Assembly (NCBI GenBank): GCA_035221665.1
Contig: CM069165.1
Coordinates: forward strand, 3,534,001 to 3,598,000
Direction: 5' to 3'
DNA: 64,000 bases
DNA from: Okamejei kenojei
Taxonomy: Eukaryota
Below, piece by piece: positions 38,657-43,979 of this stretch; the first letter of the stretch is position 1; each line of letters opens with the position of its first letter. Both the position numbers and the translations under genes were made by a program. The notes under the pieces were generated by a model. It made no database searches. It was not told the DNA's origin and saw nothing but the letters and a program-made list of their open reading frames with translations.

Positions 38657-38695
38657 GGTTTTTGCTCATACTCTATTCCTGTTTGAGTCACTGTG
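38657..38695 (-). promoter_or_regulatory. V-segment 23-bp-spacer recombination signal sequence
   Basis: Minus strand CACAGTG - ACTCAAACAGGAATAGAGTATGA (23) - GCAAAAACC. Confidence 0.96.
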
Positions 38696-39004
38696 CAGCT
38701 TCTTTAGCAGCGCAAAAATATCGCGCCTCATCTGCGTCCCTCACGCTGTGGATCCGGAGATTGAACCTCTTGTTTTCTGCTTCCGCGCTGATAATGAACC
38801 CGTTCTGAAATCCCTTTTCGTACTGAGGTTCCTGGCTACTATAGACGTTCCCGATCAGCGTCAATCCTGTTCCCTCAGTCTGACGGTACCACAGCATGTT
38901 ATCACGGACCGTGCCTGTCTGTAGACAACTCATCGCCCCGGCTTCCCCCTCCCTAACGCTGAGGGAGTTGGGTGACTGTTTGATCTCATTCGCCCGGTAT
39001 GAAC
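38696..39004 (-). CDS. TRBV: T-cell receptor beta variable gene segment (V exon), open frame; leader exon not visible, probably in gap 39055-39190
   Basis: Acceptor ctctAG|GT TCA; NEIKQSP...MSC...MLWYRQ...QYEKGF...D-E-A-R-YFCAAKE; IgV Cys/Trp/YxC; 23-RSS; adjacent D/J segments are beta type. Confidence 0.9.
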
Positions 39005-39219
39005 CTAGAGATAAAGGCATGAAAGAGAGGCAAATCAATCTGTCTGACTCTCTCNNNNNNNNNNNNNNNNNNNNNNNNNNNNNNNNNNNNNNNNNNNNNN
39101 NNNNNNNNNNNNNNNNNNNNNNNNNNNNNNNNNNNNNNNNNNNNNNNNNNNNNNNNNNNNNNNNNNNNNNNNNNNNNNNNNNNNNNNNNNTGCAACGAGA
39201 TTTGGTTTGCAACTCCATC

Positions 39220-39356
39220 CGATGTCATAACTTAAACGACTAATAACATTTAGGTTTAGATACTCCGAGAACAAGGTTTGTGAAAAGAACATCAGAAGAG
39301 CAAAACAGTCAAACCCAAAACAGACTAATGTGCAGATGTGTCTGTGCGACGTGACC
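39220..39356 (-). promoter_or_regulatory. Putative V promoter (CRE-like motifs and E-box)
   Basis: Minus strand GGTCACGTC (39348-39356), CATCTG (39333-39338), TGACATCG (39220-39227) upstream of the gap where the leader is expected; Vbeta promoters carry a CRE-like decamer. Confidence 0.35.
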
Positions 39357-39391
39357 ATCCGAGAGAGACAGTACATGGGCGTGGGGGGCAC

Positions 39392-39720
39392 TCAGCAGGG
39401 CCGCTTTAGAGCCGCTATTGCTCTGGGAATGAAGCTGTGCCTGAGTCTGCAGGTTCGGGCGTAGAAGCCCTTGTAGCGTCTGCCGGAAGGGAGTAGTTCG
39501 AACAGTCCATTACAAGAGTGAGAGTAGTCGTTATGGATGCTGACGGCCTTCCTAAGGCACCGTGTGTGGTAGATGCCCTTCCAAGGCTGGTAGCGGTGTC
39601 CCAATGTTATTTTGCGCTCCGTGGACGACGCGCTGAAGAGCTCTCCTCTCCGCCTGCATGCAGCTGAGTTAGCACACAGAGATGCCATACGTCATGGTGC
39701 TCTCTGTCATGCAGCGGTAT
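39392..39720 (-). mobile_element. LINE 3' fragment, Rex1/Babar-like
   Basis: YHTRCLRKAVSI...LFELLPSGRRYK...RLRHSFIPRAI C-terminal motif. Confidence 0.7.
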
Positions 39721-40158
39721 TGTATCGATGTCTGTATTTATGTGTTTCGATCTATGCCCATCTCTACGTACACATTCATCTATCGTGTATCAACCTGTAT
39801 CTCTCGCGATCTGTACCTCATTACTTCCATGTATCCTTCTCTCTATCTAATCATTATATATCTCTACCTGTTTGCCTGCCTGCCTGTCTGTCTGTCGTCT
39901 ACTTTTCTTTGCATATACCCTATCTACCTGTATCTCTCTCTATCCATCTATATCTACCTTTCCATCTATCTATCTATTAAGCAGCATCGTTGACTATTTA
40001 TCTATCTATCTATTTATATGTCTCATGTATTCTTCTCTCTACCCACACGTCTCTCTATCTATGTCTCTATCTCTCACTCCAGCTCTCTATCTCTATGTAC
40101 CTAACTGCCTAACTAACTAACTAACTAATTAATTAACGAACTAAATAACTAACGAACG

Positions 40159-40189
<31 letters not shown>

Positions 40190-40201
40190 GAAGTAAGTAA
40201 G

Positions 40202-40924: not shown

Positions 40925-41752
40925 ATTTTAAACTGACCGGCAATTGTCTCGCGAACACCTCTCCTTCTACTCCTCCCACTTCCTCCAAATCCAAGGCGTA
41001 GCCCTGGGCAATCGTATGGGCCCCAGCTATGCCTGTCTCTTTGTAGAGTGTATTCCATCAACCCCGTTCATTGCGTATACTGGCCCGAACCCCAAACTAT
41101 ATCTCCACTACATTGCGTCGGTCTACATACTGCACCCATGCAGAACTCGCGGACGTCATTAACGTCACTACCAATTTCCATCCTGCACTTACATTCAATT
41201 GGGCTATCTCGGACATCATCCTACTGTTTCTTGACATTCAGTTTCTTGATATCACCCTCTGCACCACAGGACATAGACTATCGACTGACAACTATTATAA
41301 CCTTACTGAATCTCGCAGCAATCAGCACATCCTCCCAACCTGCTTCCGGGAAATATTATATCCTTTACCGCCCAATCCCTCCGTCTACGCCGCATCTGCG
41401 CCCAATGAGAGATGTTCCAATCCTGGGCATCCTAGGTGTCCTCCTTCTTTAAGGAACAGGGGTTCCTATCTTTCATCATAGATGAGACACTCTCATGGGT
41501 CCCCTCAGTATTGCGCTATTCCTCTCTTCCTCCCTCTGCACACCGTCACAACAGGTCCAGAGTCCCCCTAGTCCTCACGTTTCACGGATCAGCTGTCAGC
41601 TACAGCACATATTACTTCAATACTTTCGCCACATCCAACGGGACCCCACCACTAACCACATCTTCCCATCTCAACACTTCCCGCAGAGACTGTTCCCTCC
41701 ACAACTCCCTAGTTAACTCATCCCTTCCCACCCAAACAGCCCGCTCCCGAGG
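40925..41752 (+). mobile_element. Penelope-like element reverse-transcriptase fragment, degenerate
   Basis: SHFLQIQGVALGNRMGPSYACLFV, NFHPALTFNWAIS..LLFLDI, RVPLVLTFH. Confidence 0.8.
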
Positions 41753-42845
41753 AATGGTATTTGGGATATAGTGCTGACATGGTAAGATAAGTGGTTGGCA
41801 GACAGGAAACAAAGAGTAGGGATTAACGGGTCCCTTTCACAATGGCAGGCAGTGACTAGTGGGGTCCCACAAGGATCGGTGCTATGGCTGCAGCTATTTG
41901 CAATATGCATCAATGATTTGGATGAAGGGATTCAAAGTAACATTAGCACATCTGCTGATGACACGAAGCTGGGTGGCAGTGTGAACTGTGAGGAGGATGC
42001 TATGAGAATGCAGGGTGACTTGGGCAGGTTGCGGGAGTGGGCAGATGCATGGCAGATGAAGTTTAATGCGGATCGTGAGGTTATCCACATTGGTAGGAAA
42101 GACACGAAGGTATATTACTATCTAAATGGCTTCGTTGGGAAAAGGGGAAGTACATCGGGATCTGGGGGTTCTTGTTCAGCAGTCTATGAAAGTAAGCAGG
42201 CAGTGAAGAAAGCGAATGGTATGTTGGCCTTTATAACAAGAGGAATCGAATATAGGAGCAAATAGGTCATTCTGCAGTTGTGCAGAGCCCAAGTAAGACC
42301 TGGAATATTTTGTGCAGTGTTGGTCCCAAAACTTGAGGAAGGACATTCTTGCTATTGAGGGAGTGCAGCGTAGGTTCACAAGGTTAATTCTCAGGATGGC
42401 TGGACAGTCAATGCTGATTAAATGGAACAGCTGGGCTTGTACAATCTGGAGTTTCGAAGGATGAGAGGGCATCTCATTGAAATATAAGACTGTTAAGGGT
42501 TTGAACACGCTAGAGGCAGGAAACATGTTCCCGATGTTGGGGAAGTCCAGAGCCAGCGGCCACAGTTCAAGAATGAGTAAGCCATTTAGGACGGAGACGA
42601 GGAAACACTTTTTCTCAAAGAGAGTTGTGAGTCTGTGGAATTCTCTGCCTCAGAGGGCGTTGGAGGCATGTTCTCTGGATGCGTTCACGAGAGTATTATA
42701 TTGGGCTCTTAAAATAGCGGAGTCAGGGGATATGGGGAGAAGGCAGGAACAGGTACTGATTGTGGATGATCAGCCATGATCACATTCAATGGCGGTACTG
42801 GCTTGAAGGACTGAATGGTCTACTCCTGTACATATTTTCTATTGT
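41753..42845 (+). mobile_element. Older CR1 3' half
   Basis: RKQRVGING...GVPQGSVL...ADDTKLGG to the 3' UTR, with frameshifts. Confidence 0.9.
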
Positions 42846-43084
42846 CGATTGTCTATTGACTTTCCTCGACCGACACTGTCCAACGACCCCGACAAAGATA
42901 GAGAGATAGATGGATAGATTGATAGATGGTACAGATGGAAATATAGATATACAGACAGACGTACAGATCAATTTATTGTTTAATATAGTTTTTCCAGATT
43001 ACTAAGGTTACATTTCCGTTGTGCTGCTGCAGGTATGAATCTGATTGTACGACAATTAAACACTCTTTTAATCAATTGTCTTTT

Positions 43085-43212
43085 AAAGAAGGAACTGCAG
43101 ATGCTGGAGAATCGAGGGTACACAAAAAGCTGGAGAAACTCAGCGGGTGCAGCAGCATCTAAGGAGCGAAGGAGGTAGGCGACGTTTCGGGTCGAGACCC
43201 TTCTTCAGACTG
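43085..43212 (-). mobile_element. Penelope-type terminal repeat with hammerhead-like core
   Basis: Minus strand CAGT CTGAAGA AGGGTCTCGACCC GAAAC GTC (core 43181-43208). Confidence 0.6.
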
Positions 43213-43899
43213 GTCAGGGATCAGGGAAACGAGAGATATAGACGGTGATGTGGAGAGATAAGGTTTTGGCCGCCAGGTGGCGGCGGTGTTTGTTCGGTGA
43301 CGGTGTTGTCGGGATGGGGTGCATGGCGTTTCGTGAATTTAGCTTGATAAGAAGGCGTAAAAGGACGGACATGGGGTGAAGAAGGAAAATAAATGTGGAA
43401 AAGTTAATACGATGTAAATGAGAGTAGTAGTGCGAGAGAGAAAAGAGGAAATCTAAGAGAAATAATATAGATGGAGAGGCAGCAGACATGGAGGGCGGAC
43501 ATTGGTTTACGACGAAAAAGCTAAACAGAGGGAGGGGAAGGAAGGNNNNNNNNNNNNNNNNNNNNNNNNNNNNNNNNNNNNNNNNNNNNNNNNNNNNNNN
43601 NNNNNNNNNNNNNNNNNNNNNNNNNNNNNNNNNNNNNNNNNNNNNNNNNNNNNNNNNNNNNNNNNNNNNNNNNNNNNNNNNNNNNNNNNNNNNNNNNNNN
43701 NNNNNNNNNNNNNNNNNNAGATAGTGAGAGAGGGAGAGGGAGAGGGAGAGAGAGAGACAGAGATGAAACGAGGAGAGGCTGTAAGGGGAGCAGAGACGGT
43801 GGGCGGGAAAGAGGGGGCGGGCGGTGGAGGGGAGAAGATGAGACGGGAGGGGTGGAGTGGAGGAATGAAGAGGGGGAGGTGAGGGTACGATGGGAGGAG

Positions 43900-43927
43900 G
43901 CTTTTTGTATGACAATTGAACACCGTG
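43900..43927 (-). promoter_or_regulatory. D1 5' 12-RSS
   Basis: Plus strand GCTTTTTGT - ATGACAATTGAA (12) - CACCGTG. Confidence 0.93.
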
Positions 43928-43940
43928 GGGACAGGGGGGA
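43928..43940 (+). CDS. TRBD1: TCR beta diversity segment D1, GGGACAGGGGGGA
   Basis: Nearly identical to the conserved vertebrate TRBD1 core GGGACAGGGGGC; flanked by 12- and 23-RSS; open in all three frames (GTGG/GQGG/DRG). Confidence 0.95.
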
Positions 43941-43979
43941 CACGGTGTTTCCTTCCGATGCAGTCCCTGTACAAAAACC
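43941..43979 (+). promoter_or_regulatory. D1 3' 23-RSS
   Basis: CACGGTG - TTTCCTTCCGATGCAGTCCCTGT (23) - ACAAAAACC. Confidence 0.95.

Follow-up and report, generated by a model that had tools for sequence, protein, structure and literature searches.

The T-cell receptor beta locus of the skate Okamejei kenojei places V segments of mixed orientation between two opposed D-J-C clusters

Organization of the locus

A 64,000-nucleotide stretch of the Okamejei kenojei genome (the window, G000:C35:3534001-3598000, on contig CM069165.1) holds a variable (V) gene belonging to TRB, the beta locus for the T-cell receptor (TCR), on the minus strand (here the flagged V) and, to its right, diversity (D) and joining (J) segments on the plus strand. 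Across the larger region analyzed (C35:3134001-3798000, scanned as 10-kb pieces, such that features cut at a piece boundary could be missed), the locus runs from left to right as a constant (C)-J-D cluster facing right, V segments of mixed orientation, and a D-J-C cluster facing left, each pointing its D end toward the V segments.

The flagged V is a complete gene, with a leader, an open V exon, and a recombination signal sequence with a 23-base spacer (23-RSS), all on the minus strand. The V exon (39004-38696) has both cysteines, the tryptophan, and a YFC motif and matches the V-set family of Pfam with an E value of 3e-11. Its 23-RSS (38657..38695) has a consensus heptamer and a nonamer with one mismatch; three 23-RSS matches with at most one mismatch occur in the window against 0.01 expected, a number that none of 100 shuffles reached. 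The leader exon (40585-40540; 46 nucleotides, phase 1), which was absent from the original prediction, splices in frame to the V exon and is conserved in C576, an unplaced contig considered below. Because the gene is complete and its leader lies upstream, the promoter of the flagged V should lie between the V exon and D1.

The flagged V clusters with TRBV sequences of whale, zebra, and sevengill shark (45-48% identity to shark V), and it is the only intact member of this clade found on C35. Sequences annotated as TCR beta in sharks are the ones with which both V and C cluster, which bears out the earlier assignment of the segment to TRBV; PDB searches on their own do not separate TCR from immunoglobulin (Ig). 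No full-length protein carrying the flagged V was found at an E value of 1e-8 among 137 candidates. One of four read runs (X1, type unrecorded) yielded a single 288-nucleotide contig over 38721-39005 that starts at the splice acceptor with three further unmatched letters, and we use it neither for nor against expression. The remaining three runs gave no match to the flagged V, and no joints or loose ends were seen in any of the four.

The right cluster has the order D1-J-J-D2-J-J-C1, entirely on the plus strand. TRBD1 (43928..43940) carries the conserved G-rich TRBD core, in the form quoted by PMC11754216. It is flanked by a 5' 12-RSS on the minus strand (43900..43927, two mismatches), which fits the consensus better than either of the other two D 5' signals seen on C35, and by a 3' 23-RSS on the plus strand (43941..43979). 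TRBJ 1.1 (53213..53262, FGxG at 53232) and TRBJ 1.2 (53874..53923, FGxG at 53893) follow, then TRBD2 (55171..55183) with a 3' 23-RSS at 55184-55222 and a weaker 5' 12-RSS, and finally TRBJ 2.1 (57739..57788, 12-RSS 57711-57738, FGxG at 57758) and TRBJ 2.2 (61632..61681, 12-RSS 61604-61631, FGxG at 61651). The C1 gene lies beyond the window (C35:3608290-3618500), with exons at 3608290, 3610703, 3612385, and 3618486. Just past the window end is a degenerate J (L009:100-160, C35 about 3598110) homologous to a J of the left cluster at 3317055. A CTCF-like motif on the plus strand (43270..43283), which C576 also has, separates V from D1 and lies some 620 bases upstream of the 5' RSS of D1; 0.05 such matches were expected, and 5 of 100 shuffles contained one.

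The left cluster (C35:3295054-3330700) lies on the minus strand in all its J, D, and C exons, with the order C2-J-D-J-J-J and the D at 3323523. Its four J segments all have FGxG. C2 (exon at C35:3310268-3309999) is 78% identical to the right C, and its other exons are at 3301650, 3297295, and 3295054. C1 and C2 each comprise Ig, connecting, transmembrane, and cytoplasmic exons, with a lysine in the transmembrane exon. In both clusters J segments with a 12-RSS and FGxG precede a four-exon C, and the locus has D segments with a 5' 12-RSS, a 3' 23-RSS, and the G-rich core. The J/D/C regions of the two sides align in mirror order at 68-78% identity, and the left cluster turns its 5' end toward the V array. 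Genome-wide, a C exon query gave three strong TRBC matches, namely C1, C2, and a copy on C576.

Directly after its Ig exon, each of C1 and C2 has a degenerate copy of the transmembrane exon (L010:930-1022; L051, C35:3309446-3309336), and a further degenerate copy lies 26 kb beyond the left one (L055, C35:3271054-3270953). A possible enhancer 12.7 kb 3' of both C genes was rejected, the single-copy match being an AT-rich repeat without an ETS-RUNX motif. The motif scan found no exact ETS-RUNX site near C1 or C2 and 28 loose matches in 1.12 Mb. We take synteny with EPHB6 or trypsinogens to be a feature of TRB loci; none of 13 Eph ligand-binding matches lay on C35.

Orientation of the flagged V segment

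The original prediction placed the V and its 23-RSS on the minus strand and D and J on the plus strand, and the V exon, its RSS, D1, the four J segments, and the second D all agree with it. The signals of both V and D1 lie to the left of their coding ends, so joining the two would invert 38696-43927 (5.2 kb) and keep the signal joint on the chromosome, as was proposed. A caveat attached to that proposal, that two gaps (39055-39190 and 43546-43718) separate V from D1, is answered by C576. This contig, of 96,388 bases and read whole, carries V on the minus strand and D1, J, and C on the plus strand, with no N run over the corresponding interval or elsewhere in the series. Its V has 92% protein identity to the flagged V, its V and D1 signals (at 34335 and 39279) are spaced nearly as in the window, and it is collinear with C35 at 90-97% identity (about 95%) from V to about 20 kb past C.

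C576 differs from C35 in having other broken V segments upstream, a different satellite load, and an extra, third D (L074, C576:54121-54143) between its last two J segments, absent from the window, as structural variation between haplotypes or copies. It is either a divergent haplotype or a third copy. The four differences from C35 listed for read run X1 all agree with C576, and at least two of the nine differences of C576 in this span are not listed in X1; this pattern fits C576 as an allele without proving it.

The V array between the clusters

The flagged V had been described as a lone segment with the main V array elsewhere, and neither description holds. The scaffold carries 13 V-like segments, seven minus and six plus, in the left-to-right order - + - - + - - + + + - + -, the flagged V being the last. 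The other 12 (six minus and six plus) lie 63-222 kb to its left at C35:3351229-3510047; the nearest fragment is 63 kb away and the nearest open V 104 kb, and our scans likewise found no other V in the left 38 kb of the window. The frame is open from Cys to Cys in 5 of the 13 (3354809 plus, 3404934 plus, 3432819 minus, 3468796 plus, and the flagged V). The flagged V has its mirror image at the left end, where the open V at 3354809, on the plus strand, points away from the first left J, which lies about 24 kb from it. The two paralogs of the flagged V (3351229 and 3401149) are on the minus strand, with poor nonamers and with frameshifts that could be sequencing error. The remaining ten are of a type ending in CAWS, with Mel5 beta, which we take to be TRBV30, as their best single-domain PDB match. 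Their 3' ends match the end of mouse V31 (PMC7478721). No V was found 3' of the C genes, within 190 kb of C1 or 176 kb of C2. One otherwise intact V (L038, C35:3432819-3433100) has an RSS spacer of 24 bases.

In genome searches with four V queries, each scoring the best 150 candidates, TRBV-like matches were confined to C35, C576, and a second unplaced contig, C67. Two nurse-shark V family queries, at the same depth, found no relatives closer than the V segments already mapped. A V-set family search of the best 150 of 1083 candidates did not have the flagged V itself among the matches listed and is uninformative on a larger array. These searches recovered only two TRBV clades, against several among shark proteins; either the assembly is incomplete or this skate may draw on an unusually narrow pool of V-beta segments. 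C67 (356,308 bases, read whole) has 11 V-like matches of CAWS type (seven minus, four plus; C67:3606-160793) and no J or C. Its first 17.5 kb mirror C35:3462673-3477400, and it has an intact V at 3606 whose counterpart on C35, at 3475791, carries a frameshift. A 37-bp satellite fills 2-11687 (326 copies) and 16856-22227 (150 copies) of the window and runs on into C35:3524001-3534000; within the TRB locus it separates the flagged V from the V array, and it is less extensive in C576.

Two possible targets for one V segment

The flagged V is the right end of a mixed-orientation array between two opposed, complete D-J-C clusters, and we think it probable that it rearranges both ways, by a 5.2-kb inversion to D1 and by a deletion of about 249 kb to the far cluster. 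Because opposed clusters flank the array, deletion would bring each V to one of them and inversion to the other: by geometry, a minus-strand V would reach the left cluster through deletion and the right one through inversion, and a plus-strand V the reverse. The original prediction that joining requires inversion is thus correct toward D1, but inversion is not obligatory, since the minus-strand cluster about 249 kb to the left permits deletion.

Such a locus would have arisen by duplication and inversion of the D-J-C block in the skate lineage, and the flagged V would be backward only relative to its near neighbor. RAG would capture signals by diffusion, blind to orientation, and in mouse Tcrb V joining can indeed be orientation-independent (PMC10772921). 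The flagged V would invert to D1 by virtue of the 5-kb distance, its own near-consensus signal, and the best D 5' signal found. In mouse, V31, a nearby inverted V, inverts from 10 kb in normal use and is found in 7.0% of cells (PMC7478721). Once one end had joined, the opposite end would still be free to rearrange. Inversion to D1 would spare the array and the left cluster, making a second rearrangement on the same chromosome possible; deletion to the left cluster would take out the array and leave the right cluster stranded. In mice, a single allele was seen to carry two V rearrangements only when the signals had been strengthened (PMC7478721).

A gene model from another skate, Leucoraja erinacea (P0003, XP_055517541.1), gives independent support for placing the left cluster beside the array. 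Its V is 74-79% identical to the broken minus-strand paralogs on C35, and its C is 87.8% identical to the left C2, compared with 76.7% to the right C1. The presence of both in one model indicates that this V type and a C2-type C share a strand in another skate. In a tree of 11 C exons, which includes no teleost C, those of skates group together (100/99) to the exclusion of seven shark C, and the Leucoraja C is nearer C2 than C1. This grouping places the C duplication, in all likelihood, after the shark-skate split and before the split from Leucoraja.

Several observations count against two-way rearrangement. No rearranged V-D-J sequence was seen in the four read runs, and the Leucoraja model is an automatic gene model, not a cDNA. 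A 500-N gap with low-complexity flanks (C35:3338348) separates the left J segments from the V array (from C35:3338848 to the flagged V there is no N run of 20 or more); the left D1, expected near this gap, was not found, and the sole left D that was has a weak 5' nonamer. Homology bridging the gap, seen by eye, was rejected as not significant, with a score of 36 against 28 +/- 4 for shuffles and up to 46 for controls. Both C576 and C67 show several percent divergence from C35 and a different V and D content, so a third cluster may be present, or the region may have been collapsed. Finally, the CTCF-like motif could insulate V from D1; on a speculative view, this predicted site may limit their contact.

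That last point is central to a different arrangement, in which two independent translocons are interleaved and each V joins, by deletion, only the cluster that it faces. The flagged V would then serve the far left cluster, shielded from D1 by the CTCF-like site. Consistent with this, all three flagged-clade V segments on C35 face left, the clade shares a strand with C in shark and Leucoraja models, and the authors who described the head-to-head loci of salmonids interpret them as recombination units separate from each other (PMC10464911). However, a near-consensus 23-RSS lies 5 kb from the best D 5' signal found, mouse V31 inverts from twice that distance, and the left D1 is missing from the assembly. 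On balance we regard strict independence as unlikely. A second alternative is that the left cluster is misjoined at the 500-N gap or is unable to rearrange, in which case all minus-strand V segments must invert to the right cluster, close to what was originally proposed. The low-complexity flanks, the lack of significant homology across the gap, and the absence of a left D1 all suit this explanation; against it, the left cluster presents its 5' end to the array as a TRB cluster should, C2 has four exons alongside four J segments with FGxG, and the Leucoraja model ties the flagged V's clade to a C2-type C on one strand. We consider it improbable. An assembly flip of the V-bearing piece between the two N stretches that part V from D1 is largely refuted and now highly implausible, as C576 repeats the same strands and spacing without an N run, and the first N stretch falls between the leader and the V exon, which share a strand and a reading frame.

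Two-way rearrangement from a shared array, the reading we prefer, can be carried further. In its fullest form, which we offer tentatively and would not ourselves expect to hold in every part, the skate has a two-way TRB that evolved apart from the salmonid one, in which a small, shared, interleaved V pool would feed two diverged, outward-facing D-J-C clusters, each V deletional to one and inversional to the other. One chromosome might then rescue a failed join or build two beta chains, and the flagged V, the sole intact representative of a clade that is broad in sharks, would reach D1 by a 5-kb flip. Since every V would have one cluster to join by deletion and one by inversion, and the C and J of the two clusters can be told apart by sequence, a single repertoire could compare inversion with deletion and near with far joining. 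The locus also lets one ask how allelic exclusion works with two beta clusters per chromosome, a question that PMC10464911 leaves open.

Comparison with known TRB loci

Head-to-head TRB loci in salmonids and pike and inverted V segments in mammals and newts are known, and rearrangement by inversion is well known, which limits the surprise; what is new is the interleaving of V directions and a duplication confined to skates on the C tree. The layout is unusual, as was first proposed. A review describes cartilaginous-fish TCR loci as mammal-like translocons (PMC6795676). We found no genomic map of a skate or shark TRB in the open-access literature; an earlier account may exist in the supplementary files to the genome papers on elephant shark and little skate, or in subscription papers that deal with TCR beta in skate and horn shark, and the excerpts of PMC12227049 and PMC5931798 contain no shark map. 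Gene models from Leucoraja (P0003), Rhincodon (P0004), Stegostoma (P0005), and Heptranchias (P0014) share the V clade and C family of the flagged V's locus, with the V type on the J/C strand, and are silent on a second cluster. Separately, Heterodontus has five TCR beta models (P0008, P0009, P0012, P0013, and P0015) and Heptranchias two (P0010 and P0014) with near-identical C, which hints at several TRB clusters in some sharks but could reflect isoforms or haplotigs.

In mammals, as in other amniotes, an inverted V is located 3' of C (PMC11754216). Like mouse Trbv31 and human TRBV30, the flagged V is near D-J in the opposite orientation, and its inversion would retain the signal joint. Trbv31, however, lies 10 kb 3' of C and joins by inversion only, whereas the flagged V, located 5' of D1, could also join by deletion; nor is it of the CAWS type to which Trbv31 and its own ten neighbors on C35 belong. 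In the newt Pleurodeles waltl, inverted TRBV clusters lie among six D-J-C units and are used in the repertoire (PMC12698447). The skate resembles the newt in having an inverted V upstream of a D-J-C unit, but in the newt, according to its description, all units and the main V cluster point the same way, whereas the skate clusters are opposed.

The closest parallel in layout is with salmonids and northern pike, in which two V-D-J-C loci stand head-to-head with the V genes central (PMC10464911). As there, opposed D-J-C clusters occupy both ends of a central V region, here with one 500-N gap. In salmonids and pike, however, nearly all V segments share the orientation of their own cluster, whereas in the skate the V directions alternate and the V beside D1 points away from it. 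The paired C genes of the fishes are near identical; those of the skate are 78% identical, and its V set is small (5 of 13 open on C35). Common origin with the salmonid and pike duplication is not what we find, as both skate C genes group with that of Leucoraja apart from shark C on a tree without teleost C. If the skate arrangement is as we propose, the head-to-head layout of salmonids and pike would have had a second, independent origin.

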